Source: Zootoca vivipara (taxonomy: Eukaryota). Taken from it: a stretch of DNA of 64,000 nucleotides. The notes beneath the pieces were generated by a model, which had not been told where the DNA came from, ran no database searches, and was given only the letters and a program-made list of their open reading frames with translations. The position numbers were made by a program, and so were the translations under genes. The stretch covers positions 82,150,001 through 82,214,000 of the forward strand of contig NC_083276.1 in the NCBI RefSeq assembly GCF_963506605.1, in the 5' to 3' direction. Shown here piece after piece: positions 1,971 through 57,988 of the stretch; positions within the stretch are counted from its first letter, which is position 1, and every line of letters starts with the position of its first letter.

Positions 1971-3184
1971 TACTGCAATATACTGCAATATACTGATATA
2001 TCACAATGTCTGGAATGTTTCTCAGCTGCTTCTTCCTCCCCACCTTAGGGAAACCAAGATATATTGCCCAGCTCTACTGAGTAAGCCTCCATACCGCTCT
2101 GGCTCAGGAGAGTCCGAGGGGCAGAGAGGCTTCACTGAACTGCTCAGCTGAGGGACAGGAAGTCTCCCGCCCCCCAGCTGAACAAGCCTCAATACCACTC
2201 CGGCTCGCATTAGCTGAAGTGGTGTGGGGCTTCCTCAAAGGCGCAGATAGGTGGAGCCCAAGAAGATACTAGCCCGGAACTTTCTCAGGCACCATCTGCC
2301 TGCCTGCACCTTTGCTGTCTGCTGGCAATTTGTCAATCCTTGAAAAAGCCAACTGACGTTGGCTCCAATTCAGCACTAAAGAGTCAGTTTCCCTAGGGGA
2401 AAGTGCCTGGACTAGGGGAACCGAGCTTTGCAGAGGGCAACCACTACCTGAATGTTAAGCACTAATGAAAACTCACTGGGGAGTTGAGATTTGCCATCTT
2501 AAGAAACTAGAAGAAGGTGCACAAGACAGATAATCTTCCTCCCTGCTTGGGTTCGCTAAGAAGACATCACTACACATAAATGGGATGAGGGCACCAAACA
2601 ACAGCCACCCCGTGCATCAGGGAAGAAAAATGCTGCCAAAGCTGGAGAATGGATGGCATCCTTCTCCGTCACTGTCTGCTATACATCAATCACAGAGATG
2701 GGTGGGAAATGTAAATAGAATCGATGCTCCAAGGAGATGAGAATGATTGCTAAAGCAGGACTGCCGGCTGCTGGCTCCGCAAGGGCAGGATTTCCTGTCT
2801 CCAGGTCCCCTCGCTTGCAGCTCATGAGATAAGCAAGAAGGTCAGGAAAGGACTAATGCCAGGGAGGGGGAAAAAATCAATAGAGAGTGGGAGTGGATGC
2901 TGATTTATGATTCCCAATGCAAGCTGGGGATCTGTCACTACAAGGACGCAGGGAGAGCAGAGCAGCGTGATGACACGTCACAAGGGCATCTCATTCCCTT
3001 CTAGCTCTGACAAAAATCTCGGCTTTAATGAGCAGAAAGCCTTGGTGTGCTTCTGAAAGGCCATTTGCAGCATGGTGGCAGCCACTAGGCAGCTCCACAC
3101 ATGGTGGCATCATTGTGTGGATATCTGGTTGTCAGTGGCCTCCAACTATATGGTGAAGTGAGCATTGCCACTGCAAGCCCCCAG

Positions 3185-3275
3185 CATAGCTGTCAAGTTC
3201 TCCCTTTTTAAAAAGGGAAATTCCCTTATGCTGAATAGGCTTCCTCGTGAGAAAAGGGAAAACTTGACAGCTATG
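3185..3275. mobile_element. 91-bp hAT-type MITE
   Basis: TIRs CATAGCTGTCAAGTT(C/T)TCCCTTT; perfect 8-bp TSD GCCCCCAG (3177-3184, 3276-3283). Confidence 0.9.
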
Positions 3276-3346
3276 GCCCCCAGGTACCAACAGGACTCAT
3301 TCATCTGTCTCTTTGCTCCTTAAAAACGCTGTGCAATGGATCTAAC

Positions 3347-4163
3347 TAGGGTGGATTTGATTTAAATCAAATTGATTTAAATCACTAGTCAGTAAGACTT
3401 CATTTAAATCATTTTTTTTATAATTTTTTTTTACAGAAAGACTCAATCTTGCTGGTATAATCCTGACATTTACAACCAGCTGAAGGTTTCATTTTTGGAA
3501 TAATAATTTTTCAGAGTACAGTAGTTTCTACAGTTATATCAAAAATTATACTCTTAGCAATACATAGACAAATATATAAAATATATAAATATATATAAAA
3601 ATTATACTCTTAGCAATACATAGACAAAAATTATACTCTTAGCAATACATAGACCGATAATTATGAAATTATTGTGAGGTTTAATGAGTTAAATGTTTAT
3701 ATTTGGACAACTTTTCTGCTGCACTTTATTGGAAGGAGAAAAATAATCGTTTCCTTAATAACAACTTAAACCATTTATTTAACTAAAACAATAACATTAT
3801 AGCATATGTATCCATGTTTGTTAACTTATGTAATTAAACAGTTTCATTTTTATTTTTTTAAAAAAGCTTAGACTGAGTTTTAGCACACATGAAAAACTTT
3901 AGCCTTTGGAAATTCCAAATTTCCTGATGAATAGCCTTTGGAAATAATGTAACTTAAATAAAAAAATATAAATAAAAAACTATCTTCAGAAAGATTTTTT
4001 CCTCCAAAAAGCATTTTAATTTAAAAATCTAATTTAAATAAAAAAAATCTGATTTAAATAAAAAAACCTGATTTAAATAAAAAAATCTGATTTAAATAAG
4101 AAAACTGATTTTTTAAAAAATCTGATTTTTTAAAAAATATATTATTGATTTTTATCCACCCTG
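3347..4163. mobile_element. AT-rich non-autonomous hAT element (Tip100/Zaphod-like)
   Basis: Ends TAGGGTGGAT / ATCCACCCTG; 8-bp TSD GATCTAAC/GATCTAGC; repeated subterminal GATTTAAAT motifs at both ends. Confidence 0.85.
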
Positions 4164-5583
4164 GATCTAGCCTCACAGAAGGCCAGTCGGCTGTTGCCTC
4201 TAGCCACATGGGGAGGTGATCCTCACTGTGCTCTTGGAAATCAGTGGATGTGAAGAGTCGGGTTGTGTGTGATGAGGTTCAGGCCTTTTTGTGTGTGCAG
4301 TTAGAGCTGCCACAGGACTTTTTAGCAGCCACCATGCCATACCTGCTTCTTTGCCCCACCTTTGCCCCATAAATAATTAAAAAAGCAAGGCAGATGTGTG
4401 TGGATAAACTAGGCCCCAAACTTTATTAACATTAACAGAAGGAGGTCGGCAATGGGAACTGGCTGAGGCAGAGCTTCCTGGCATTTTCTGCCTGCCTCTA
4501 CTCCATCTGGTGAAGCTATTAGGTGCCATGGGAGACTCCTCTGAGTAACTACCCCAAATCCCAGGACTCTGCATGCATGATTCTGGCACGGTCCAGGGGG
4601 GCTCTTTTCCAGCTTCCATGTCCCAAAGTCCTGAGCTGCGAAACTAGAGTGACAGTCCTTTGATGCCACTTGTTACAAAGCTACCACCTAGTCCTAGAAA
4701 GTCAGAAAAGAGTAGGAGAAAGAAAAACCCTGCTTCTTTCAGTCAAGGCTTATCCACACTTCCTCTTGCTCTTCCCATGGTGCACTTTAATGCTCATTTG
4801 GAGCAAATGGCAAAGGGGTTTTACATGGACTGTTGTTTGTTCTGATTTAAAGCCAAAGAGCAGGTTTTCCCTGGGAAAGGAGAGGGGCAAGGGGGAAACT
4901 GCTCAGACCCATGCCTAAGAAAATGTGGTTCTAGTGGAAAACCACTTGGAACAAGCCGAAGTGTGAACAAGCCTTGTTTGTTTCAGAGGCAATTTCTGCT
5001 CCACCCTGAAGTGCCCAAATGCTCTTACCCTGACTCATATTCTAGGAGAAGGAGAGCACCTCCCTGCTCTGCCTAATAGTTCTAGTAGAGAAATTCTGGT
5101 TAGTAACTTTAACAGACCATTTGGAAGAAGTAGTGACCTGTTTAGTTAACCAAGTACACTCTGTCATTTATTTGAGTTTCTGTATAGCAGTTTTTGCTAA
5201 CTGCAACTACAGATGCAACAAAGTACCCAGATCTAATGAATTCACACACACAAATGCTGCATGGTTGGGGAAATTTACAACCGTCTCTAAACTTTTTTTG
5301 CATTGTGTGGTTTATAATCTCTGGGAAACTGTGTAAAACAAACTGTTTCCTAGCGTAGCAGGTCTAAATCAGGTAGGGAAATGCAGAAGGCACAGGATTC
5401 AAATCCCATGATCCAAAAATGCCCTTCTTAGCCTCTCTGGGAGAACTGCTGCTTTTATTTCAAGCTGAGACAAGAGAGCCACCATTTTACCCAGAAGTTC
5501 ACAATGTGTTGTGTAATAGGGAACAGAATGACAGAATCCCCAAGGGGACGCTAACAACTGGACTGCCGTGTCATTTCACCTAC

Positions 5584-15621: not shown

Positions 15622-17374
15622 TGTGTGTCTGATGAAATTGACTGAGGTCCCTGAAATGTTCTGTCATGATAAATGTGCTAGCTTTTGCCACAACAGAATA
15701 ACATGACTGCTGTTCTGGAACAGTGTAAACAAATATACCTTTTTTTTTTTTTTTACTTTTGTTGGAAATCTAGACTGCAAATGGGTCTGGTTACTATCCA
15801 TTTCTTTGCTTGTCATGTATTGGACGTTGTATTGAGGTTGGGTGAACAGCTTGTCACAGGATATATTTGTGATGTGTCATGATTACAGTACTTTACAGCA
15901 GACAAGGGAGTGCAGGCATACAAAATAATTTGTCAAGCAAACAGTCTGACTCACTGACTGCTGCGGCTGCTGCTTTTGAGAGAGCAAGGTGCTGAGGGTG
16001 TATGTGTGGGACCCACACATGGTAACAGAGATCTTTGGAGGGGAGGGCTCTGGAGAGAGCCAGGAGAAGGCATGTGGGTGAACAGGCAACATGCCTGTAA
16101 ATCCCAGTCGCTGGAAATCACAGGTGGGGAAAGCGCTATTGCACTATGGTCCTTCTCACGAGCTTCCCAAAGGCGTCGGGTTGACTACTGTGAGAACAAA
16201 ATGCCAGGGGCCTTTGCTTCTCATCCAGTAGGGCTCTTCTTATCTTTTTAAGGAGAGGAAGGTAATGAGGAGAATGTATGCATCTCACTTTGTGTCAAAC
16301 ACTTGAGGGGAAAAAAAAGTCCGACTGAGGGAGCCATGGTGGCACCACAAAAAACGGTAGTGGCAGGTGTGGTGGGGCAGAGCCGCTTCCCTGGCTGACG
16401 TTAGTTTCTCTGCAGCTCACCTGGGCAGCACTGGGCTGTGGCTGGGTGGTGGCTAAGTTGGGGCTAGAGGAGAGCTCACCAAGGCTTCCTTTTGTGCCTC
16501 AGTGTCAGAATTCTCTTCCCCCTGACTGGTGAATCCCCAGTGAAAGCCCACTCTTTACTGCTGAAAACAATTCTGCAGAAAACTCAAATTGCTGTTTGTT
16601 TCTTCTGATTGCGCTAAAGAGTGGGTTTTCCTGGGGACAGCGGCAGGGCAGGGGGAGAGCATTCTGACATGGAGCTTTAAACTGTGGACCAGCACCATTC
16701 GAGTAAGCTACAGCAATGACACTAGTCTTAGCCATACTTACTCTTGTCCTGCTGCTTCCTCCCCAGGGAAAACTGCTCTTTAGAGCTCAGTCGGAGCAAA
16801 CAGCAATTCAGGGTCTCCCCAAATTGCTGTTTTGTTCTGATCTTTTTGCTAAAGAGTGGGTTTGCCCTTAGAAAAGAGCAGGGGAAACCACTTGGACCCT
16901 TGCCTAAAAAGCATGGGTCAAGAGGAAAATGGCTCAGACCTGTATTTCTGAGGTACGCACAAACAGGTGTGGACGAGGCCACTGCCAGCTGCTACTGCCA
17001 GTGCTGACTACCTGAAGAAGTGTGCATGCACACAAAATCTCATACCAATGACAAACTTGGTTGGTCTCTAAGGTGCTGCTGGAAGGAAATTTTTTTATTT
17101 TGTTTCGACTATGTCAGACCAACACGGCTACCTACCTGTAACTATCTGATGTGGATTGAGGATGTGTGCAGGGAGGTGCTGCCCTCAAGTCATTGCCTAA
17201 ATATCTTTCTCTAAAGAGCCAGAGGTAGGCCTACTACCTGCTTCGCGAGATGTAAGTTGCAGGAAGCAACTTAAATCTAACACAAAGATGACATACGGTA
17301 TTTTAATTAAGAACTGTTAATGTTCTGCCACACAGAACAGGCCATTTTCTTACAGCTGTGTATACACTATAAAG

Positions 17375-17510
17375 CAGGCATCCCCAAACTGCGGCCCTCC
17401 AGATGTTTTGGCCTACAACTCCCATGATCCCTAGCTAACAGGACCAGTGGTCAGAGAAGATGGGAATTGTAGTCCAAAACACCTGGAGGGCTGAAGTTTG
17501 GGGATGCCTG
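17375..17510. mobile_element. 136-bp hAT (Charlie-like) MITE
   Basis: TIR CAGGCATCCCCAAACT; TSD CTATAAAG/CTATAACG; nested in an older palindromic element (about 17353-17685). Confidence 0.92.
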
Positions 17511-17699
17511 CTATAACGCATGTTTGAAGCACATTTCCACCTCAAAGAATTCTTGACACTGTCATTTGTTAAGGGTTGCTGGGAATTATACCTCTGTGCG
17601 GGGTAAACGACATACCCAGAATTCTTTGAGGGGGAAAATGTGCTCTGAATGTGCTTTAAAGGTACATTATAGTGTGTAATTAGCCATAGATAATCTCAC

Positions 17700-23397: not shown

Positions 23398-24339
23398 CTA
23401 TTTCAATAGGAACCCCTTTCTCCCGATTACTCTCTTTACAGCATCTTTCACTTCTTTGTTCTTTACACTGTAGATCAAGGGATTTAACATTGGAATCACA
23501 ACTGTGTAGAACATGGAGACCATCTTGTCCTGATCTTCTGAGAAGCTGTTGCTGGGCTGTACCACGTAGATAAAGAAGAGGGTCCCGAAAAAGATGGAAA
23601 CGGTGGTGAGGTGGGAGAAACAGGTAGAGAAAGTCTTACGCCAGCCCTCTGCAGAGCGCATCCTCAGGATGGCAGCGAGGATGTAGATGTAGGAGATGAT
23701 GATAAGAGAACAGCTGAGAGTGCCCAGTGTGCAGGACATGGCAAAGAGCACTAACTTGTTGATTTGTGTGTCTGAGCAGGAGAGCGAAATCACTGCAGGG
23801 ATGTCACAGAAGAAGTGATTGATCTTGAAGTGACAGAAGGTTAACTGGAAAGTTAAGGTTGTGTGTGTGATGCCATTTAGCAGCCCCACACAATAGGGGC
23901 CAGCCAGCAGTTGGACACAAACTTTCCTGGACATGATGAGCTTATACAACAGTGGGTTAGAAATGGCCACATACCGATCATAGGCCATTGAAGTCAAGAG
24001 GTAACCTTCGACACCCAAAAAGAAGCTGAAGAACCACATCTGTGCTGCACACCCGGGCAAGGAAATCATTTTGCTTTCCGCAACAAAATCCACCAACATC
24101 TTAGGAGTGACAACTGAAGAATAGCAGAGGTCCACAAAGGACAAGTTGCTGAGAAAGAAGTACATGGGGGTGTGAAGCCGGGAGTCAGTCCTGATTAAGA
24201 GGATCATCCCAAGATTTCCCACGAGGGTGATGAGGTAGACGGTTAGGAAGAATATGAAGAGTAGGATTTGCAGCTCTGGAGATCCAGCAAAGCCCAGAAA
24301 GATAAATTCATGCACCATGGTGTGGTTTACATTGGCCAT
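23398..24339 (-). CDS. Olfactory receptor, class II (family 5/8/9-like), 313 aa
   Basis: Intact ORF with [37 protein letters not shown]; N-glycosylation site NHT; splice acceptor ending at 24351 just upstream of the ATG. Confidence 0.95.
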
Positions 24340-26874: not shown

Positions 26875-28308
26875 ACATTTACAGACAAAAAATAAAAATA
26901 CAGACATTACACAGTTAAACCAAATCAAATCAAAGTTTATTGCATTAGCCATATAGCCATAGCACATATAAAAGATCAAACAGGCAACTGTCACACAACA
27001 ACACATAATACAACAAATACAACTATAACATTAAATATAATACAATGTTAAATATATATAATACACTTTTTTATAAAAAATATTCTTTTCTTTACAAATG
27101 CCAAAGTGCAAAACAACAAGCACCCACCCTCCCACCCTGAAATACCATGCAAACACATATTTATTACCTACCAGGTTTCCCCTTTAAGGCCTTAACTACA
27201 CATCTCACACATGCATAGGCTGGAAACAAAAGCTTCTTCTTCTTATGCTTAACCTTTTCTTTCCCCAAGCTTATAGGCATTAGCCTGACCCCAGAGACCC
27301 TTTTCCTCTTGCAGTGTCCCAAATGTCTATTTGCAAGCCAAACATGCATTTTAAATGTTTGGGAAGAAAAGAGGTTCAGTGCAAAACTCACTGGTTGATT
27401 TTCCTTAACAAATCATCCTCAATGGGTGGAAGGCAAGCAGGATCAGAATCAAGGTGAGTGGTTTGTAGGGGGGCTTTAAGTCTTTGCCCCATCATAGTCC
27501 CAATGAGAATCTACCCACACTTGCTATTTCTTCTTTCCCTTGATCCAACTTTGTGTTACCAGGGAAACCATGTGACAAATGTCATGTCAAACTTGGGTGC
27601 TTAATGAGGATTCGGAGCAGAGGAGCTGCAGGCAGGGAAAGGGCCAGGAAGCCCTGACCTTCTCTGGTCCAAATTTTCTCCCAAGGGAAAAACATCCATG
27701 GATTTTTGCTACACACATATATATTTAGTGTTCAGTCCCCTGCTTAATGCTAGTGCAGAGTTTGAAATTTAATTCAGTGAAGAATGACAAGATCACATTG
27801 AACTGAGTATATTTCTCTACTTCTTAGACCAGCATCCATTAGTCTACGTCCCTCTTCTTATATCACAATATTTATTAATTTGCTGTGAAATTCCTTTCTT
27901 AAACTCTTACCCATTTAGATATTAGCTGGTTCAACATTTAATGTACATGTCTACTCTGAAGTAAGGTTTCTCGAGCCCAGACAAGAGGGCACATAATTAC
28001 CACCTGGTTGAGCAGTCCTCAGTGGTAAGATGGTAGAAGAATCTTCACTTCGCTCCTTCCAGGGCATAAGGTGTATGGGAGCTGCTTTCCTGTCCTTTTC
28101 TTTCCCTATGATATATATATTTTTAAAATCCTTCCCACAAACATAAATGGGAGAGAAAACCACTATTCTACCTCCAGGGCTCAGAGAGTTTCATGCTGTT
28201 TGGGGACCTTTTCAACAGTCTTTGCCAACACACTTGCTTTCATGAATTCCCCAAACAAAAATGGATGGAAATAGCAACTTTTCTGCAACAAAACCGAATA
28301 ACTGCATA

Positions 28309-29241
28309 TCAGGAGAAATGTTTCACCCTGAGCACCCTCTTGACTGCGTATTTCACATCTTTGTTTCTTAGGCTGTAGATCAAGGGGTTTAACATGGGGA
28401 TCAGCACAGTGTAGAACATGGAGACAATCTTGTCTTCATCTTCTGTGGAGTCAGAACTGGGCCGGACATATATGAAGAAGAGGCTCCCAAAGAAAAGTGA
28501 GACAGCGGTGAGGTGGGAAAAGCAGGTAGAGAAAGCCTTGTGCCTCCCTTCACTGGAACGGATCCTCAAGGTGGCTGCAAGGATGTAGATGTAAGAGATG
28601 ATGACAATTAAGCCACTGACTGTTCCAAACATGAAGGAGAGACCAAAAAGCACCATCATGTTGAAACTTGTGTCAGAGCAAGAGAGCGATATGACTGCAG
28701 GGATGTCACAGAAGAAATGGTTGATTGTGGACTTGCAGAAAGTTAATTGGAAAGTTAAGCTGGTATGTGTCGTCGCATTTAGTAGCCCTGCAAGATAGGG
28801 TCCAACCATCAGCTGGGCACAAATTTTCTTGGACATAATGACTGTATAGAGAAGAGGCTTGGAAATAGCTACGTACCGATCATAAGCCATGGCTGCCAAA
28901 ATGAAACACTCAGTGGCCACAAAGACACAAAACATAGCCATCTGTGCTGCACATCCAGGCAAGGAAATGCTTTTGCTTTTCACGACAAAATCCATCAACA
29001 TCTTAGGGGTGACAACGGAAGCATAGCAGAGGTCCACAAAGGACAGCTGGCTGAGGAAGAAGTACATGGGGGTGTGAAGTCGAGAATCGATCCTGATTAA
29101 TAGGATCATCCCAAGATTTCCCACAATGGTGATGAGGTAGACTACAAGGAAGAATACGAAAAGCAAGATTTTCAGCTCTGGTGAGTCAGTGAAGCCCAAA
29201 AGTATGAACTCATATATGGTGCTGTGATTTTCCCTTGACAT
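28309..29241 (-). CDS. Olfactory receptor, class II (family 5/8/9-like), 310 aa
   Basis: Intact ORF with all OR motifs; acceptor AG at 29254-29253. Confidence 0.95.
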
Positions 29242-29941
29242 GCTTTTTAATTCTGTAGAGAATGTAGAGAAGAAAAGACAAGCAATTTCTGTAACATAAA
29301 CTCAAGTTTGTATCACTGAAAACTCTGCATCCTTGTATCCTGCTGGCTATCGTGCTTCCTGTGGTTATGCCTGTGCTGATCCAAGACATTTTGTTGCCTG
29401 AGGCAAACTAGAAAATGCTCTTCCAGTCATTGAACTAGGACTAGGACACTGAACAGTAAGCAGATGATAACTACCACCCCCATTTGTTTAGTTTTGTTGA
29501 GTGTTGAGCATACATCGAGCAGAAGGTTTGAGTCAGTGACTTCCAAAGTCTGTGCCAACCCTAAAATGATTTGATTTTGGGCTTCCGGTTTTGCTCTGTC
29601 TTAATGATAATTGAGGATAATTATCCATGTAAATTTCCCCCAGAGATGGGGGTGGGATGGGCTTCACTCTCATTTTGTCTCGGTACCTGGTTCTGGAATG
29701 TGGGAGTCGGTGGCACGGAGTACAAAAGCACTTTGCCTGCCAAAAACCCTCCAACACCACCATTAAGAAACAGAGGTTCTCCTGTTAATTAGAGCTAAAG
29801 TACAGGCATGTGCTGGAAGAGATGATATCACAAACTGTGGAACAAACCAACTGCAAGGACTTTAAGGTTTGAACTTGAGATAAGACTTCGTTCAGTGCAA
29901 AAGACAGTGGCGGGGGGAGCCTACGGTTTCTTTATTTAAAG

Positions 29942-30077
29942 AAGGCATCCCCAAACTTCGGCCCTCCAGATGTTTTGGACTACAGTTCCCATCATCCCTG
30001 ACCACTGGTCCTGTTAGCTAGGGATCATGGGAGTTGTAGGCCAAAACATCTGGAGGGCCGCAGTTTGGGGATGCCTG
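29942..30077. mobile_element. 136-bp hAT (Charlie-like) MITE
   Basis: Same family as 17375; perfect TSD ATTTAAAG. Confidence 0.92.
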
Positions 30078-31781
30078 ATTTAAAGTTTTCTTCTCTACAT
30101 TTATAATTTGGCAACCCTCTTCTGAATGTTAGTTCAAATTATATTTGTAGAAGCAAGGATGGAAGAAATTGGAATTTAAACATGGAATACAACATCAAAC
30201 TGAACTATGTGTGTAAAAAAAAGGAAAAAGGGAGGGAAGCTATATTTTGCAAAAGGTTTACTATGGAAACTGAGAGCTGACTCTTCCCCATCCTTTATTA
30301 TTTACAAAGTGAACTGAATAACACTTAGAGGACTTGGAATTTAATTCAATTGAAATGATAATTGCTCACAGATCTTCAGCTGGAAGGAAGGATGAAAGGG
30401 TCTGTGAACTGCCAAGGAACTGATAGGGCTCTTTATTGAGTCATTTGCAGTTTGACAGATGGCTTTTCTTCCTAGGCTGAGAGGAAAAATGGTAACAACA
30501 GGTAATATTTACTGGGACAGAGTGACTTTTGCAGCTGTTGTTAAAGTTGCAAAAAAAACGGAGCACGGGACAAAGCAAAAGAGAAATTTGTGGAACAGCA
30601 ATGGGATATCAGTTCCACCCAAATCATGGCAGATAACAGCAACAACAGGGGGGAAGAAAGACATCTTATAAGGACAGGAAGAAACACCACAGACAGAATA
30701 ATTGCCACACACAGGAAGAACAAGCATATAGTTTGAGTTCCTCACTTGTAGTTTTATAAATCATTTAATGTGCCAACACAAATAGACATTATTAATATTG
30801 TAGTTGTTGTATGAGGGATTATTATTATGACTGGAATGTAATTGAAAGTAATAAGATTTTGGAATGCAGAGATAAAGAAATTAATCAACTAATCAAATCT
30901 AGCATGCGGGACCCCCACTTTATCTAAATTATACAATTCGGTATTTGAATGATTGGTATTAACAATTGTATTATAAATTGGTATTGTTATAATGAGGCTA
31001 TTATTGGACTGTAATTGAAAACTAATAAAAACATTATTTTTTAAAAAAATAAAGTGATATGATTCTAATCTGAGCAAGAGCCCCTAATTATTACAATTTA
31101 ATGGTACTAGTGTAATAGTGTGGATTTTTACTCAGGTGAACTTACTGTATGTTCAGTGGAACATACTCATGGGAAAGTGTTCATGGGATTCATTTGTTTG
31201 TGGAGGTTAAAAAACCCATGGCCCAACCCCCAAGCGTAGCCTTCAGTCCTGAAACAAACATCAGTGGGAATGACAATATTTAAAATAAAAATGAAGCCAC
31301 TCTCTTTTTTCCACTGCTGCCTCCTCCTACCCCCACCCTTCAGCACTTTCCTTCCCTCAGCCAGTGTCCCTTCCAGGCTCTGCCTGATTTATGTGTGCTT
31401 CCTACGTCAGGTAGCTAGTCAGGATGAGAGGGAGGAGGTGAGCTAGGATCCTAATCTGCCTTCCCTCCCAAATCTGCCACTCAAGTGCCCACCTCATTGT
31501 AGAGCAGTCTCTGGGCTATATGCAAAATTGTAACTTTAGGGGGAATCTTCTGGATACTGATTCAGCATTCAGAATCAATGACTAGGCAAAGTTTGCAGTT
31601 TTGTCACCCTTTATCTGTTATGAAGCCAATAAATAATATTTTCTGCGCTTTGTCTGCTTGTTAGTGGCATGCAGGAAGGATGAAAATAACTTCTGACCTC
31701 CACCTGATGATGATCCTCCAAATTGCCCCTTCCTGACATAATGCTATGTACAGTATAAACCAGAAATTATTAAGAGAGCCT

Positions 31782-38012: not shown

Positions 38013-38945
38013 TCAGGAGAAATGTTTCATTCTAAGCACCCTCTTGACTGCGTCTTTCACATCTTTGTTTCTTAGGCTGTAGATCAAGGGGTTTAACATG
38101 GGGATCAGCACAGTGTAGAACATGGAGACAGCTTTGTCTTCATCTTCTGTGGAGTCAGAACTGGGCCGGACATATATGAAGAAGAGGCTCCCAAAGAAAA
38201 GAGAGACAGCGGTGAGGTGGGAAAAGCAGGTAGAGAAAACCTTGTGCCTCCCTTCACTGGAGCGGATCCTCAAAGTGGCTGCAAGGATGTAGATGTAAGA
38301 GATGATGACAATAAAGCCGCTGACTGTTCCTAACACAAAGGAGAGACCCAAAAGCACCATCATGTTGAAACTTGTGTCAGAGCAGGAGAGCGATATGACT
38401 GCAGGGATGTCACAGAAGAAATGGTTGATTGTGGACTTGCAGAAAGTTAACTGGAAAGTTAAGCTGGTGTGTGTTGTAGCATTGATCAGTCCTGCAAGAT
38501 AGGGTCCAACCATCAGCTGGGCACAAATTTTCCTGGACATGATGACTGTATAGAGAAGAGGCTTGGAAATAGCTACGTACCGATCGTAAGCCATGGCTGC
38601 CAAAATGAAAGCTTCAGCGGCCACAAAGAGACAAAACATAGCCATCTGTGCTGCACATCCAGGCAAGGAAATGCTTTTGCTTTTCACGACAAAATCCATC
38701 AACATCTTAGGGGTGACGACGGAAGAGTAGCAGAGGTCCACAAAGGACAGCTGGCTGAGGAAGAAGTACATGGGGGTGTGAAGTCGAGAATCGTTCCTGA
38801 TTAATAGGATCATCCCAAGATTCCCCACAATGGTGATGAGGTAGACTACAAGGAAGAATACGAAAAGCAAGATTTTCAGCTCTGGTGAGTCAGTGAAGCC
38901 CAAAAGTATGAACTCATATATGGTGCTGTGATTTTCCCTTGACAT
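38013..38945 (-). CDS. Olfactory receptor, class II, 310 aa; close paralog of 28309-29241
   Basis: Intact ORF; 15 amino-acid differences from the paralog by manual comparison. Confidence 0.95.
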
Positions 38946-41019: not shown

Positions 41020-41501
<482 letters not shown>

Positions 41502-41618
41502 TAAATTTAGATTTTTAAAAATTATTTCTTGTACTTGATGCATTTCTATTCTTACTTTCCATACCCATGTTCAACCTTAAAACATAACAATAAAATGCAC
41601 ACACAAAAGCACATCTTT

Positions 41619-43487
41619 TTAAATTAAGGTTGCTGGGACGGAGCGGAGGCGGTCCTCAAATTCCTCTGGTGTGGGCCCGGCGATCAGTACATCATCGAAG
41701 AAGGGGGTGACGCCAGGAATCCCTTTAAGGAGAGAGTCCATTAGATTCTGGAATATGCCTGGTGCCACGCTAACGCCAAATTGCAGCCGCTTTACTCTGA
41801 ATGCCCCTCTGTGTGTCACAATCGTCTGAGCCTCTGCTGTGGCTTCGTCCACAGGCAACTGTTGATACGCTTGGGCCAAGTCCAGTTTGCCAAAGATTTT
41901 TGACCCAGCCAGGGTGGCGAGGACATGGCTGACCACTGGCACTGGGTATGCATGAGCCGTGAGAGCCTTGTTTATGGTGCATTTGTAGTCTGCACAGATG
42001 CGGACCGAACCGTTAGGCTTGACGGGTGTGACAATTGGAGTTTCCCAGGGGGCGTTGGGCACCGGCTCCAGCACTCCTTGCTCCACGAGCCGGTCCAATT
42101 CCTCGTCTATGCGGGGTTTCAGGGCGAACGGGACCCGGCGGGCCTTGTGCCTGATGGGTCGTACAGCGGGGTCTAGCTGTAGGGCAATGGGGGGTCCTGT
42201 ATATCGTCCCAATGCCCCATCGAAAACCCCTGGAAACTCTTTGCATATGGCGTCCACGTCCACTTGTAAGCTAGTGCGGTTCACCCCGGTAACGGCTAGC
42301 CCCAGAGGTCCAAACCATGCCAGTCCCAGTAAGCTAGCGTAGGGGCCCTTAACTACCAGCAAGTCCAATTGTTGCTTTCGCCCTCGATATTGCACCCTGA
42401 AGGTCCCCACCCCCATTGTAGGGACCTTACGTTTCTGGAAGTCCCGGAGGGTGAATGGGGCCGGCCTTAGTTTGGGACCCCCATTAGGGCACAGTTCCCT
42501 TAATGTTCGGGCCGAGATTATGGATAGAGTTGAACCCGTGTCCAGCTCCATGCGGCATGGGGCTCCCTCTATCTGTACCTCTATATAAATTTTCTCTGTG
42601 CTGGGATGGGGCAACTGGAATACCTGGTAGTCCGTGATCTCCGTCGAGTTGCCTTGGTGCATGGTGCCGTGTGACCTGGGGCTCCTGGGTCGGTCATCTG
42701 ATGCTTGTCGACGGGTGAGTCGAGCCCGACACACCCGGGCGATGTGTCCCAATTTTCTGCACTGCCTGCACTCTGCGTTGCGGAAACGACAGGTCCTCCT
42801 CTCGTGGTTCTCCCCGCAGCTTGCACAGTTCCCTCCTTCTCGTCGAGGCTGCTGTGGTGTGTGTGCTGCTTGAGTGCGCCGCTGTACTCGGTGTACTTCC
42901 TCCCTGTCAGATTCGGATTCGTCGGTGAGGTCTTCGTGGTAGACCCTCGGTTGGGATGGCGGGGCCGGTCGTGCCTCTTGCGTTGACCTCTCGGCGGCTT
43001 TGGTTGCCAGGGCTTCCTCCAGAGCAATCTGGAACGTGAGGTCTTTTTTGGCGTAGAGGCGTCGTTGCAACATCTCGTCCCTCAGGCCACCGACGAGGCG
43101 GTCACGAAGCATGTTCTCCAACTCTGAGAAGTTGCATAACCGGGCGGCTTGGCGGAGGGAGGTCACAAACCCAGTTATGGTTTCCCCCGGGGCTTGCCGC
43201 TTTGCGTAGAAGGCATTTCGGCAAGCTACCTCCGAGGGCTGTGGTGAAAAGTGCTCCTTCAGCCGTTCCATTATTGTTTTGTAAGAGACGGTAGCGACAT
43301 CTCTAGGTGCAAGGAGAGCCCGGGCGATTTCAAACGTCTCCTCTCCACAGACGCTGAAGAATGTCGCCCTCTTCATGGCATCGTTGGTGACTTCTTTCGC
43401 TTGCAGGAGGAAGTTGAAACGGGCGGCGTACCCTTCCCAGTCTCCTGATGCTGGTTTGAATGGCAAGAAGCTGCTGTCGGTTGCCAT
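41619..43487 (-). CDS. Gypsy gag-protease-partial RT polyprotein, 622 aa
   Basis: Two Zn knuckles (CASCGENHERRTC, CRQCRKLGHIARVC); aspartic protease LDTGS; RT motifs KPNGSVRICADYK, LDLAQAYQQ, FFDD. No RNase H or integrase; the last codons come from flanking DNA. Confidence 0.9.
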   Translation of the reverse strand: MATDSSFLPFKPASGDWEGYAARFNFLLQAKEVTNDAMKRATFFSVCGEETFEIARALLAPRDVATVSYKTIMERLKEHFSPQPSEVACRNAFYAKRQAPGETITGFVTSLRQAARLCNFSELENMLRDRLVGGLRDEMLQRRLYAKKDLTFQIALEEALATKAAERSTQEARPAPPSQPRVYHEDLTDESESDREEVHRVQRRTQAAHTPQQPRREGGNCASCGENHERRTCRFRNAECRQCRKLGHIARVCRARLTRRQASDDRPRSPRSHGTMHQGNSTEITDYQVFQLPHPSTEKIYIEVQIEGAPCRMELDTGSTLSIISARTLRELCPNGGPKLRPAPFTLRDFQKRKVPTMGVGTFRVQYRGRKQQLDLLVVKGPYASLLGLAWFGPLGLAVTGVNRTSLQVDVDAICKEFPGVFDGALGRYTGPPIALQLDPAVRPIRHKARRVPFALKPRIDEELDRLVEQGVLEPVPNAPWETPIVTPVKPNGSVRICADYKCTINKALTAHAYPVPVVSHVLATLAGSKIFGKLDLAQAYQQLPVDEATAEAQTIVTHRGAFRVKRLQFGVSVAPGIFQNLMDSLLKGIPGVTPFFDDVLIAGPTPEEFEDRLRSVPATLI

Positions 43488-43596
43488 TCTGGGTTCCTTG
43501 GGTCCTGGAGCTGAAGCCTGGATGCACGGTGCGATGCAGCGGTGCAGCAGGTGGCGGTGCTGCGGTGCAGTGCGTGGTGGCGGTCAGCTCAGCAGG

Positions 43597-43614
43597 ATCC
43601 CACCTTCGTCGCCA
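43597..43614 (-). other. Primer-binding site, tRNA-Ser(GCT)-type
   Basis: TGGCGACGAAGGTGGGAT, 1 nt inside the LTR end; complementary to the vertebrate tRNA-Ser(GCT) 3' end ATCCCACC(T/C)TCGTCGCCA as I recall it. Confidence 0.8.
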
Positions 43615-43615
43615 G

Positions 43616-43991
43616 TGAAATATACTCGGAGTCGAGAGTGAATTTCATGCTCTTTATTCAGCTCATATTCATCAAGGAGAAGAAGAGAAGACGAATGGCT
43701 CTTTTCCCAAAACCATCTGCTTATATACATTATTTACACAATGGGCCTTGCGTGATTGGCTACTTCAGGGCTACACCTGTGGGCCAATTATATTGTGGAT
43801 TGACTTCTGCCTGCAGCCTGATTGGCTGCTCCTACAGGCCAATCAGGTAGCAGATTCACTTCTGCCAGCCGCCTGATTGGCTGCTCCAGCAGGCCAATCA
43901 GGTTGCGGTTTCACTTTCACCTGGAGTTGGATTGGGTAGCTCCCGCTGATTCTGAATCCTATTGTTCTAGGATTCCGCTCAGTACATAACA
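43616..43991 (-). repeat. 5' LTR (376 bp)
   Basis: TGTTATGTAC...ATATTTCA; repeated ATTGG...CCAAT palindromes; TATATAA near 43721-43727; AATAAA near 43653-43658. Confidence 0.9.
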
Positions 43992-44350
43992 GTTGCAATC
44001 CTACTCTTGCATGTATACTTTATTGAAATCTGTGATGATGTGAAATTTAGCAATGCAAAATTGAAAGATACACCAGTGGCAAGGGAGTAAAGTTCATCTG
44101 AAATATTCTGTAACTTAAGCACATTAGATATAGAATCATAGGAACATAGGCAGCTGCCTTATTTCAACTCAGATGATCACTCTGTCTTGCTCACAGTGGC
44201 TCTCTGGGTTTCCAGAACGGACATCCCCAGGCTTACCTGGGGCAATGCCAGGGATTGAAATGGGACCATGCTCTACCACTGAGCTGTGATCATAATCTTT
44301 ATCCAAATGAATTAAGGAACAAAAAGCAAGTATTCCTGAAGATGCTAGAC

Positions 44351-44486
44351 CAGGCATCCCCAAACTGCGACCCTCCAGATGTTTTGGCCTACAACTCCCA
44401 TGATCCCTAGCTAACAGGACCAGTGGTCAGGGAAGATGGGAATTGTAGTCCAAAACATCTGGAGGGTTGAAGTTTGGGGATACCTG
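44351..44486. mobile_element. 136-bp hAT (Charlie-like) MITE
   Basis: Same family as 17375; partial TSD (..TAGAC). Confidence 0.9.
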
Positions 44487-45865
44487 CTTTAGACATTAGA
44501 CCAGAATCAAATGGGAAAGCTTGTTTTGGAAGTGTGACTAGCCCAAGGTCACCCAGCAGCTGCATGTGGAGGAGTGGAGACACAAACCCGGTTCCCCAGA
44601 TTACAAATCTACCGCTCTTACAGAGAAAGAAGTTTGCATTTGTATCCTCATAGAGAATTGCCCTCCTGTGTTTATAATCTGGTTGACCTGGGGTATCTTA
44701 GCTGAATGGGAAGAGCAGAGAGGAAGGAGAGGCCAGAAGGGTGAAAAGATCTTTCCTTTTTCTTCTCATCTGACTTGGCCGGTCAGGGCGAAGAATGAAA
44801 GGATCCCTGGAACAGGCAATGGATGTATGTGGATACATTGCAAACATGTGGTTTAGGAAGTGCAATCTGGCCAAAGTCTAATTTGATAACTAAAATCTAG
44901 AAATACTTTTAAACCTACCCATCTTCTTATGACCTGCAAACACTTTTTCCTCTTGCAATTCTTGTCTCTGGTTCGTCCTGTGCATCAAGTTGAACCTCCA
45001 CTATTTACTCCACTCTCTACCACAGGAGCTGCTTTCAGTGATGAGATGAAAAGATGGCTAAATGTCATTATGATGCCTACAAATTCTTATGTATCACAGA
45101 ACTGCTTGTTGTGTGTATAACTTAGTATTTCTGAAACTGCTGTTCAGAAGGGACTTTCTATTCTGAGAGTTTGGAACTGGGGATTTTGTCCTCCGGAAGG
45201 ATCAGGTATCAGGTGGGAATTGCAATTATCTTAATGGCTTTCTGTAGTAGAAGTCAATTCCACTGCAAATGTCCTTGCAAAGCAAAAACAATATCTACAC
45301 AGTGCCAGCACAAATAGTGTAAAAAGCAGATCTAGACTACAATCCAGTAGAGAGCATAGAACACCTAAGCCCACTGATATAATAAGAATGTGCTGGATCA
45401 GACCAAAGGTCCACTCAGTCCAGCATCCTGTTCTCACAGTGGCCAACCAGAGGGCTATGGAAAGCCCACAAGCAAGTCATGAGTCTATAGCCATCTCTCT
45501 ACTTGTGTAAGTACTTATGTGACTTCTATTGCTGGATTATGGTGCTGCAACCTAGGCTTCCAGATACAGGTCTGTTTCACTGTATGGGACAAAGTCATCC
45601 CGTGGCTGTAGCAATCTCCCACTCTCCAAAGCTGTTATCCCCTGGAGATGTTCTACACCCCGCAGGAGCAAAACCCAAGATTCCCTTTATCTCCTTGGAA
45701 AAATAGTTGGGGTACATTTTTTATCAGAAAAACTTTCAGAGGTGATAGGGTTAGGCAAGTCCCACCCCAAAGTTGTCTTCCACTGCCCACTGAGTCATCT
45801 GCATCTGTATTTGATTTTCAAAGAAAATATGGGAAGAAACTTAAGTTAGATTAAAATTTAATGTA

Positions 45866-47040: not shown

Positions 47041-47195
47041 ATGACTGATGTTTTATGGTCTGGATTGTGACTTGTTACTGCTCTACAAAGTGTTTTAATT
47101 GACTGACTGAAATTTTGTTTCGGCTGTTCTCTTATGGGGAAAGGCAGTTGATGGTTTTTTATTGTTGATATTTTGAAAATGTTATTGTACTAACC

Positions 47196-47331
47196 CAGGC
47201 ACCCCCAAACTTCGGCCCTCCAGATGTTTTGGACTACAATTCCCATCATCCCTGACCACTGGTCCTGCTAGCTAGGGATCATGGGAGTTGTAGGCCAAAA
47301 CATCTGGAGGGCCGCAGTTTGGGGATGCCTG
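47196..47331. mobile_element. 136-bp hAT (Charlie-like) MITE
   Basis: Perfect TSD TACTAACC. Confidence 0.92.
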
Positions 47332-48175
47332 TACTAACCTATCTTGGATGGGTATTTATTATTTAAATTTGAATGCCGCTGCTTCATATAAATCTGCCCG
47401 GGGGGTTCACAACAGAACAAAAAAAATGCAAATCACTACAATGCAAATCAAATGCAAAACTATTTCAAAGCAGAACAACCTAACAAATAGCTCAGTTTGG
47501 GTACAAGGAGCGTTTTATATTTGAAGCCATCATAAAAGAAACTATCAGTTAATAACAAATATGATCAACATTCCAGCATGCCAACAATAATATAACCAGC
47601 AACCACTGTGTGGCAGTACTATACCAAATGATACAAAAAACCTAACCAAGTGTATAAAAAGTTTCATTAAGACTATTTTTTTAAAAGAAGTAAACACAAT
47701 TCCTAGCAGTTTATAAAATACATAGCAATTACAAATTAATAAATACAAAGCAATGAATAAAGGGTGTTTAATAGAAAGTAGCCAATTAAAGTACCTAATT
47801 TAGAAAAGAGGTAGTGAATCCTTGGCCCTTCAGTTGTTGTTGGACCACAACTCTCATCAGCATTGTCATGGTTAGGGATGATGGGAGATGAAGTCCTGTT
47901 CTATCTTGCAGGTCACAGCTTTGCCTGCCTGTTTTAGAGGCACTGCTACTGTATTGGTGATATTATATTGAACTGCTGCCCTGAATGTGCTGTTAGGTGC
48001 TCAAAACTATTGAGATCAGTGATCACTTGCAAAACCAGGATGTGTGTTCTTAAGGCATTGTGATGCTACTTATGCATAGGAATTTGAGAACATTCCACCA
48101 TTAAGAGAGAATGTACCACATAAATATAGACTCGGGATGGATGAATCAGTCTACTTTCAATCTCTTTCTGTTTTG

Positions 48176-52740: not shown

Positions 52741-52880
52741 ATTATCTGGATACAAATATTTGAGTTTTGGAAAAGAGAAGTAAACCTGGTTGTTAATGTT
52801 TATCCAATATGCCTACCTTGAGATGTTAAAAGGAGAAACAATATTGACTTCTGTGTTCTTCCCATCTCCACAGCGTCACC

Positions 52881-53873
52881 ATGATGCAGACAGAAAACAT
52901 CACGTTGGTGAACAGCTTCATACTCACAGGGCTAACAGACCTTCCTCAGTTGCAATTTGCCCTCTTTGTGATCTTTTGTGTTGTATATTCCACTACCCTG
53001 GTGGGGAATCTGGGCATGATTCTCTTAATCCGGTCCAGCCCACAACTGCAAACCCCAATGTACTTCTTACTTGGCAACCTGTCTTTCTTGGACATCTGTT
53101 ACTCCTCATCTGTCACCCCAAAGTGCCTAACCAATCTCTTAAGGGAGAAGAAAGAAATTTCTTTTGCTGATTGTTTTACTCAGCTTTTCTTTTATGGTGT
53201 ATTTGCCACCACTGAGTGTTACCTGCTGGCAGTGATGGCCTATGACCGCTACGTGGCTATCTGCAACCCGCTGCTCTACTTAATCACCATGTCCCAAAGA
53301 AAGTGCATTGAGCTAGTTGCTCTTTCCTATGCAGCTGGAACAATAAATGCTTTGGTGCACACCATTGCTGCATCAAGACTATCCTTCTGTGGACCAAACA
53401 TCATTCAGAATTTTTACTGTGAAGTTCCTCCCATACTGGAGCTGGCCTGCTCAGATATCAGTCTCAATGAAATCTTGCTCTTTGTCTTTGTCGGTTTCAA
53501 TATAACTATAACCATTATAATTGTCCTCACCTCTTACACCTGCATCCTGGTCACTATTTTAAAGATACAGTCCACTAAGAGCAAAAGCAAAGCCTTTTCC
53601 ACCTGCACTTCTCACCTCATGGTCATCACCATCTTTTTTGGCTGTGCTAGCTTCATGTATGCAAGACCTAGTTCCAGGCAGAACCACCACCTAGACAAAA
53701 TGGCCTCTGTGTTCTACGTAGTGATGACTCCCATGCTGAACCCCTTGATCTACAGCCTGAGGAACCAGGAAGTCAGGAGTGCCTTCCGAAAAATCCTGGG
53801 AAGGAAAGCTCCTTCTCAGTCTAGGCTGATACCTTCCATACAAGTTGGACCTTCTCCAGATCACAGGAGATAG
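52881..53873 (+). CDS. Olfactory receptor, class II (family 5/8-like), 330 aa
   Basis: Intact ORF with [35 protein letters not shown]; acceptor CAG at 52871-52873. Confidence 0.95.
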
Positions 53874-55683: not shown

Positions 55684-56998
55684 TCAGGAGCATTTGTGAA
55701 AAAAGCATTGTGGTTACTAATCCAACTACCTGACTGTTGCTTCATACTGTTGTTGCCTGAGATAAATATGGGGTTATAAGAAATTGCCTTAAATCATTAT
55801 AAAAGGGACAACTCAGTAAAATGTGTTCTGTGGATTCTACCTCACCCAAGGCTCAATGGCACATTCTCTGACCGTAGGGGACTCCAAATCTTCCCCTCAA
55901 AACCGCCAAATCAAGGACATTCAGTCTAGCCGCTGTAAGTAGTCTGCGGTATTCCACATATTTTTATGTATCCATCTGATGCCTTCAGTTTTATATTTTT
56001 ATATTTGTATTGAGAAATGTTTTTTTTTCCTTTCTGACTATCGGTCGAATAAAGTATATTGAATTGAATTGTTGTTGCCTGAATATGCTTTAGACACAAA
56101 CACACACACATCATTCCAACCGCAGATCTTAACAAGTTAGTATTTTTCATTTTGGCAAATAAGGAACAAAGAGAACGGTTGGGAACTTGAAAGAAGCATT
56201 CACTGGTGAAATCTCTGCAGATACAGCAGAGCATCAGCAATTAATTCTCAAAACAGGAAAGATTTAGGGCAGCCTAACTCAAGGTGGTGCCCATCAGAAT
56301 TTTAGATTGCAACTCCCAACTTCCCTGATCATTGAACATGTTGGCTGGAAATGACTGTAGTTCAAGAATATCTGGAGGGCCCCAGGTTCGGAAAGGCTGC
56401 TCTAAGCAATAGTGTTCAGTCTTCCTACTGGTCAAGACCTGTTGTTTTTTTTGGTGGTCTGTTTGGAACTATGTACATCTGCATTGAAATGGAAGGCACA
56501 CTTTGGTTATGAGGGCTCTAATACATGGTTGAAGTCAACAGGCTTCTTGGCTGTGAGTTTCTTCCTCTTTGAGACTTTATATATACAGTATTTTGGTTGT
56601 ATAATAACATATGGCTCTGCAATGTCTGACATTCCTATTCTGCTACAAAAACCTAACAGACAACAATCTGTTATTATATTTCATTGCAGCTTATCTTGCT
56701 TAAAACCAAAGCCTATTCAAAACACTGTTCACTATCAATGTATGTCCAGTATATTTAGGAAATGTTATTGATGTGTTAATGCTGTACAATCATACAGGAT
56801 GTTTTTCGCTGTGTGGGCACATCTAACAGAACAAAAAGCTACTTCTGAGGAATAGTGCGATCTCTCCACCTTCTCCAACACTTTGATACAACATGAGAGA
56901 GGAATTTGGGCTTTTTTCCAGTATTTTAGTTCTTGGGATTCTAAAAGAAAAAGCAACGCTGATTTCTGTGTTCTTCCCTTCTCCACAGTGTCACCGTG

Positions 56999-57988
56999 AT
57001 GCAAACAGGAAACAACACGTTGGTGAACAGCTTCATACTCACAGGGCTAACAGACCTTCCTCAGCTGCAAATCACCCTCTTTGTGATCTTCTGTGTTGTC
57101 TATTCCACCACCCTGGTGGGGAATCTGGGCATGATTCTCTTAATCAGGTCCACCTCACAACTTCACACCCCAATGTACTTCTTACTTGGCAACCTGTCTT
57201 TCTTGGACATCTGTTACTCCTCATCTGTCACCCCAAAGTTTCTTTCCAATATCTTAAAAGTGAAGAAAGAAATTTCTTTTGCTGGTTGTTTTACCCAGCT
57301 TTTCTTTTATGCTGCATTTGGCACCACTGAGGGTTACCTGCTGGCAGTGATGGCCTATGACCGCTACGTGGCTATCTGCAACCCACTGCTCTACTTAATC
57401 ACCATGTCCCAAAGAAAGTGTATGCAGCTAGTAGGTCTTTCCTATGCAGCTGGGACAATAAATGCTTTGGTGCACACCATTGCTGCATCAAGACTATCCT
57501 TCTGTGGACCAAACATCATCAATAATTTTTACTGTGAAATTCCTCCCATTCTGGAGCTGGCCTGCTCAGACATCAGTCTCAATGAAATCTTGCTCTTTGT
57601 CTTTGTTGGGTTCAATATAATAATAACCATTACGATTGTGCTCACCTCTTACACCTACATCCTGGTCACTATCATAAAAGTTGATTCCACTAAGAGCAGA
57701 AGAAAAGCCTTTTCCACCTGCACATCTCACCTCATGGTTGTCACCATTTTCTACGGCTCTGTTAGCTTCATGTACACACGTCCCAGTTCTAGGCAGAATC
57801 ACCACCTTGATAAAATAGCCTCAGTGTTCTATATAGTGGTGACTCCCATGCTGAACCCTTTGATCTACAGTCTGAGGAATCAGGAAGTCAGGATTGCCTT
57901 TCGAAAAATCCTGGGAAGAAAAGCTGCTTTTCAGTCTAGGATGGTACATTCAATACAAGTTTTACCTTCTCCAGATCACAGGAGATAA
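56999..57988 (+). CDS. Olfactory receptor, class II, 329 aa; paralog of 52881-53873
   Basis: Intact ORF. The paralog's first ATG is GTG here, so the likely start is ATG 56999. Acceptor CAG at 56986-56988. Confidence 0.95.

Follow-up and report, generated by a model that had tools for sequence, protein, structure and literature searches.

The window analysed here, 64,000 nucleotides of the Zootoca vivipara genome in total (contig NC_083276.1, positions 82,150,001 to 82,214,000 of the forward strand), contains an olfactory-receptor cluster. One receptor gene is present at 38013-38945 on the minus strand (Pfam 7tm_4, E 8e-49), and paralogues lie near 23400-24300, 28300-29200, 34900, 52800-53800 and 56900-57900. 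A 146-bp palindromic MITE-like repeat was identified at 17370-17515, 29937-30082, 44346-44491 and 47191-47336, and was of very high copy number in the sequencing runs. Located 2.7 kb upstream of the ATG of the receptor at 38013-38945, and on the same strand, is a Gypsy copy of 2358 bp (41634-43991, minus strand). With no 3' LTR in place, transcripts driven by the LTR of this copy could read through towards that receptor.

The Gypsy copy begins TGTTATG and finishes ...CTCCGTCCCA. The elements present are, in order, 5' LTR-PBS-gag-PR-part of RT, and the right half is absent. The 5' LTR (43616-43991, minus strand) is intact, is 376 bp in length and is bounded by TG...CA. The primer-binding site (TGGCGACGAAGG; 43603-43614, minus strand) lies one base (C) beyond the LTR. 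A single gag-pol ORF (41619-43487, minus strand), with its ATG at 43487, crosses the truncated junction and meets its stop codon within host DNA. The ORF includes an aspartic protease region (42312-42584, minus strand; Pfam gag-asp_proteas, E 3e-4, under the curated cut-off) and a truncated reverse transcriptase domain (41634-41990, minus strand; Pfam RVT_1, residues 532-650, E 3e-11). The initial annotation had described this layout, with a stop about 19 codons past the FFDD motif (41691-41702, minus strand); the layout was confirmed, the protease match being weak, and the distance from FFDD to the junction is exactly 19 codons, including the last codon, which holds the terminal CA. A full-length copy has RT-RNase H-integrase, and the last two domains are missing from the window copy.

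The flanks carry a perfect 5-bp target-site duplication (TSD), GTTGC (GCAAC on the element strand), at 41629-41633 beside the truncated end and at 43992-43996 beside the 5' LTR. Both this TSD and the TG...CA boundary of the element had been reported in the initial annotation and were found as described. The chance of a repeat of a given 5-mer is ~0.001, and with the exact 5-bp TSD, which is the length typical of the family, the target is neither abnormally duplicated nor deleted beside the truncated end. The left arm (41636-43991, minus strand) corresponds to positions 1-2356 of the 4961-bp element and has 99.66% identity to the nearest full-length copy, from which it has 8 differences in 2356 bases; the best copies have 0-7. 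The window copy is young, yet it is not among the youngest copies.

The family comprises ~900 copies. Identity over query positions 1-2356 was 99-100% for all of the best 40 of 1594 candidates, and the match of the window copy itself extended to 2358. Full-length copies measure 4961 bp and have a single long ORF; in one such copy, RVT_1 (500-647), RNase H (710-844), Integrase_H2C2 (951-1005) and rve (1021-1111) domains were identified; the protease lies upstream of RT in the window copy. The 376-bp LTRs are bounded by TG...CA and have 0-2 differences within a copy, with a primer-binding site after the 5' LTR and a purine tract (PPT) ahead of the 3' LTR. A perfect 5-bp TSD was present in 15/18 full-length spans and a 4-bp TSD in 0/18; two of the three misses are the halves of one tandem pair whose outer flanks match. 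Genome counts of exact motifs were 3670 LTR starts, 2721 LTR ends, 756 LTR-PBS borders (16-mer) and 902 PPT-LTR borders. No env was identified in a full-length copy, which has a single ATG ORF of at least 150 aa, counting both strands, and gave no env family match; in this respect the family does not fit an endogenous retrovirus or errantivirus. Based on sequence, the family is a Ty3/Gypsy LTR retrotransposon, sharing with Metaviridae-type copies the TG...CA LTRs, the PBS and PPT, the PR-RT-RNase H-IN order and the short, fixed TSD of 5 bp. One locus (L048; G000:C9:45.64 Mb) is a tandem of two full units with the middle LTR in common, inside one TSD (CAAAC). Two others (L172, L175) have different TSDs and a common internal deletion (about 1370/2268); the deleted form itself therefore got copied.

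The truncated junction and the empty allele

The initial annotation held that excision would restore an uninterrupted site. Consistent with this, a 367-bp contig of run X15, from another individual, matches 41467-41628 and then 43992-44192, joining the flanks with one GTTGC. The second matching piece has no other letters; the first (162 bases) has 4 gap letters somewhere within it. In three other samples (runs X1, X17 and X19), the 5' LTR-host junction at 43965-44366 was observed with 0 differences. With an empty allele in X15 and the occupied junction in these three samples, the insertion is polymorphic, and apparently common. Sequencing runs of other organisms contained no more than about a quarter of the sequence words searched for.

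The junction 21-mer has one occurrence in the 48-contig, 1.44-Gb genome, and the suggestion that the copy belongs to a single-LTR non-autonomous family was rejected on this ground. Full-length copies read CC|TGCACCG at the break, so that native element positions 2357-2358 are TG and not the CA found at 41634-41635 (minus strand). The use of a cryptic internal CA, also suggested in the initial annotation, was not upheld, as the nearest internal CA in the native sequence is 2 nt past the break and would need an extra 2-bp loss. Because full-length copies have TG at this position, and as judged from the native LTR end (...TATTTCA), the CA is most likely the final 2 nt of the deleted 3' LTR. The junction is blunt, from 2356 to 4960 of the reference, with no microhomology. 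A microhomology join through CA or GCA was considered; it would give ...GTCCTGCA plus the TSD, which is not the observed sequence.

The third suggestion of the initial annotation, a deletion that spared the last 2 nt of the 3' LTR, agrees with this anatomy. A lucky random deletion at the site is unlikely, because breaks of this kind cluster at the termini across the family. For the same reason, the view that the event was tied to integration is probably right, by a route that differs from the one first put forward.

Breaks near the LTR termini

The first 100 of the 756 LTR-PBS elements were surveyed, 12 of them judged by coordinate lists only. Where the host junction was kept, right breakpoints were located 4 times in the last 25 nt of the LTR, 2 times in its other 351 nt and 18 times in the 4.2-kb interior. 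The four tip breaks retained 2 nt (window copy), 6 nt (L056), 10 nt (L170) and 23 nt (L091), all with an intact TSD. Excluding the window copy, 3 right-tip breaks were observed vs 0.11 expected (P 2e-4), an enrichment of about 25-fold. Six further elements of the 100 lacked the 3' end and its TSD, one had two left ends, and 2 of the 18 internal deletions have one junction in common. Among the first 20 sister copies fetched, one (L042) passes from position 2837 directly to the final 16-19 nt of its LTR and has an intact TSD.

Anchored searches for a 14-nt LTR tip beside non-native bases yielded 26 matches for the right end and 47 for the left end, from which 20 and 37, respectively, were kept by eye as true breaks. 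The 6 right-end matches set aside were old LTR variants, low complexity and one probable chance match, and the 10 left-end matches were subfamily variants and insertions. In the left-anchored set of 37, 9 loci had a partner break at most 22 nt from the right end (7 with perfect TSDs and 2 with one mismatch), 3 had one elsewhere in the LTR, 2 were broken in the interior, 4 had two left ends, 1 was broken after the PPT and 18 were partnerless. In the right-anchored set of 20, 5 had a left remnant of 2-14 nt, 1 had a break inside the LTR, 5 had a long left arm (lacking a TSD in the case of L107) and 9 were partnerless. At partnerless loci, neither a partner end nor a full TSD was present within 1.5 kb, and ~3 of the 18 on the left are expected to be chance matches. 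Of the 18 loci with the partner break in an LTR, 14 had that break no more than 22 nt from the opposite terminus, compared with a uniform expectation of 6% (P 4e-14). Both ends are hit, with right remnants at L233, L231, L232 and L091 and left remnants at L077, L158, L070 and L065, and remnants of 1-4 nt recur (A, TG, TGT, TGTT, TTCA). Dozens of sister copies are thus cut back to 1-25 letters of their ends, like the window copy.

The density of breaks from the left end drops 4-5-fold from 14-25 nt to 30-40 nt (P<0.001). In the search at 30-40 nt, 13/18 matches were set aside as variants, small in-LTR changes or chance matches, and the 5 breaks at 30-41 nt among 2913 anchors indicate that there is no hard cap at 20 nt. 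The internal LTR borders, which are identical to the outer tips, were largely spared: 1/37 left breaks lay after the PPT vs 25% expected (902/3670 LTR starts; P 3e-4 at n=38) and 0/20 right breaks lay before the PBS vs 28% expected (756/2721; P 1.5e-3), a comparison confounded by age, as solo LTRs are older. Microhomology at the junction did not separate the tip class (0-3 nt, some small insertions) from the internal deletions (mostly 0-4 nt, up to 13).

A left tip and a right tip within 35 bp of each other were found at 21 loci, giving micro-elements of 18-34 bp; the reversed-pattern control gave 1. A perfect TSD was present in 15/21, representing 14 independent loci of 21-34 bp, with 0-3 nt of microhomology or a small insertion at the join. 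Smaller cases came from the anchored searches (L095, 17 bp; L108, 18 bp), with a left end of TG or TGT only. Over the initial 19 Mb of C1, only 4 of the 66 LTRs that were paired are 36-300 bp in length, all of older subfamilies. From this, a uniform two-break model predicts 0.7-1.4 micro-elements, and at least 10-fold more were observed. The right-end/right-end pattern of the same size had a TSD in 0/14 loci and serves as a negative control only, its size window not matching the left-end/left-end cases, which are 53 bp and longer. In standard Ty3/Gypsy decay, whole LTRs are kept (solo LTR) or a TSD copy is lost, whereas the tip-remnant class retains both TSD copies and only the tips.

Several copies have unusual ends. 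Five (L058, L165, L128, L130 and L140) have two left (U3) ends head to head within a perfect 5-bp TSD, and therefore do not come from the simple deletion of a normal copy. They show the integration of odd substrates, and may represent RT inversions followed by inverted-repeat collapse. The inverted arm of L058 consists of precisely the LTR and 2 nt of the PBS, and resembles a plus-strand strong-stop piece. Another copy (L065; G000:C1:5.516 Mb) has an 8-nt left tip, the interior from 3724, a whole LTR, 7 nt of the PBS and CA, with the TSD CACAT; from its sequence, it looks like a one-LTR circle or dimer junction with both ends trimmed. In L056 (G000:C1:82.397 Mb), a left arm of 1-672 is followed by an inverted copy of the LTR end and the 6-nt right tip, with the TSD CTGAG, an arrangement that suggests templated fold-back synthesis in repair. 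The flanks of L107 and L179 do not match, and these are possibly ectopic recombinants of distant copies. Four pairs of identical loci (L199/L200, L204/L205, L146/L147 and L254/L255) are local or segmental duplications, so that each remnant is present twice.

Proposed mechanism and alternatives

After strand transfer, one strand ties each LTR end to the host, beside a 5-nt gap. The reading we favour, with moderate confidence, is that integration proceeded normally at both ends and that, with the gaps still unrepaired, the donor was broken, then trimmed back in the direction of the unsealed junctions and closed by end joining. We infer the timing, with an unsealed intermediate, because only at that stage do the tips differ from the identical internal borders. 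Integrase would first join both LTR ends to the host in the normal way. An internal break would arise from gapped or nicked cDNA, or would be present from the outset as two separate cDNA pieces, and resection would then proceed outwards from it. Resection would halt at bound integrase, or where the short unattached strand drops off; integrase covers about 20 bp of each end (PMC11054761). Fill-in would regenerate the TSD together with 0-25 bases of the LTR, and the gap would be closed by end joining at 0-4 nt of microhomology. Trimming of one arm would give the window locus, with the left side spared and the right side cut to CA, and trimming of both would give the 18-34-bp micro-elements. The latter were shortened after strand transfer, because a molecule of 20-30 bp cannot offer two integrase-bound ends; the shortening nevertheless left both copies of the TSD intact and ended close to the tips. 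Several observations count against this reading. A full-length allele may exist at the window site, and the 8 differences of the copy mean that a deletion had time to occur later. Roughly half of the remnants are partnerless, there is no sharp cap and microhomology is uninformative. Without a right-end/right-end class, there is also no support for the free pairing of ends from two molecules.

An error of reverse transcription is a rather unlikely alternative. In this case, minus-strand synthesis would have left U5 after 2-3 nt and resumed in the RT region, the 5' LTR would have come from the second packaged RNA and integrase would have taken an end with CA only. The route has been put forward for HIV proviruses whose 3' LTR is deleted and whose 5' LTR is intact (PMC9278108), and 7/395 HIV junctions lie in U5 (PMC12657518); it could account for those sisters in which 14-23 nt of U5 survive and the junction has 2-3 nt of microhomology (L233, L107 and L232). 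The window junction, however, has 0 nt of microhomology and no attachment sequence past the CA, and one-ended retroviral integrations usually have long duplications or deletions rather than the normal short repeat (PMC5041404). Such an error also cannot produce the 18-34-bp micro-elements, or remnants of 1-4 nt at both ends. We regard as unlikely, too, an ordinary double-strand-break deletion, long after insertion, that ended by chance 2 nt short of the host junction. Deletions are common in the family, with 18 internal cases and 6/100 surveyed copies having lost the 3' end plus the TSD; the locus was chosen in the initial annotation as odd, the copy is not among the youngest, and any single locus could have this origin. 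It is the family as a whole that opposes a late deletion, through the roughly 25-fold enrichment of the last 25 nt for breaks (window locus excluded), the opposite-tip partner breaks (14/18) and the at least 10-fold excess of micro-elements over the uniform model.

Excision of the gypsy element of Drosophila has been reported. Imprecise excision, in which the integrase of active sisters would rebind and shield the resident ends while the DNA between them was cut and lost, would likewise target the termini and would act on solo LTRs, a possible source of many micro-elements. The sparing of the identical internal borders (1/37 and 0/20) and the two-left-end copies are not easily explained in this way, and we consider it very unlikely. 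It is highly improbable that integrase joined a broken cDNA through one of its internal CA dinucleotides, which in this copy would be the one located two bases past the break, with a 2-bp loss. The native sequence (CC TG CA CCG) does offer such a CA, and HTLV-1 proviruses without a 5' LTR can keep a 6-bp repeat joined to internal sequence, as stated in a review (PMC6950816); a second event would be required exactly at the junction, however, and no surveyed copy clearly ends at a native internal CA with a TSD (L065 being ambiguous), whereas LTR-tip remnants are common. An assembly mis-join, or a copy of a non-autonomous single-LTR family, has the least to recommend it and is barely credible. 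The truncated junction at 41634 is known from the assembly alone, but the junction is unique, the empty allele puts the boundary exactly at the TSD, and many independent loci have the same anatomy.

Relation to known systems and significance

HTLV-1 proviruses without a 5' LTR share with the window copy the loss of one LTR, an intact integrase-type duplication and a loss believed to fall before or during integration (PMC6950816). That case was read as integrase recognising internal sequence; in the lizard family, in contrast, the LTR tip supplies the terminal bases, either end is hit and two-tip micro-elements are found in the germline. The asymmetric-LTR proviruses of HIV-1 are explained by RT template switching (PMC9278108, PMC12657518); the assays used read neither the last bases of the 3' LTR nor both host junctions, and the sections consulted report no tip-only products. 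A strand-transfer deletion of the HIV type has an attachment site plus homology, whereas the window locus kept 2 nt with 0 nt of microhomology; some sisters fit partly. In one-ended aberrant retroviral integration (PMC5041404), the truncated end is similarly completed by host enzymes, but long host duplications or deletions are usual, whereas the window family has the normal 5-bp TSD and a terminal CA/TG. Because these are kept, both ends likely passed through integrase. The partnerless loci may, by analogy, be of the one-ended type. Deletions by host repair are described in a report on CRISPR-integrated LTR vectors without integrase (10.64898/2026.10.12.758617), a different situation.

No description of tip-clustered remnants or tip-only micro-elements was found in the literature searched, which covered few subscription papers. 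One-LTR proviruses with an intact duplication (HTLV-1) and asymmetric LTRs (HIV) are already known; the tip clustering and the tip-only scars appear to be new. Whether defective proviruses originate in reverse transcription, in integration or by later decay is still a question for HIV and HTLV-1, for which it is rare to have both host junctions read. This young germline family of 900 copies, with both junctions assembled, provides a countable series, and it points to a step after strand transfer and before the gap is repaired.

What counts here is the pattern across the family; the window locus by itself would be a curiosity. We tentatively propose that, in the short interval after strand transfer and before the gaps are sealed, LTR-retrotransposon DNA is attacked by the host's repair machinery and degraded down to the integrase-held tips. 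A few percent of germline insertions would thereby be disarmed on arrival, and the integration intermediate would have left a fossil footprint in the genome at base resolution, in the form of unannotated scars of 17-55 bp that have perfect TSDs and number from dozens to hundreds. Also predicted is a class of insertion scars, 20-35 bp in length, that are too short for most repeat annotation. If true, some truncated LTR elements would have been truncated from the start, models that use illegitimate recombination to date the loss of DNA would be biased by them, and the pattern would mark a point at which the host disables incoming elements.
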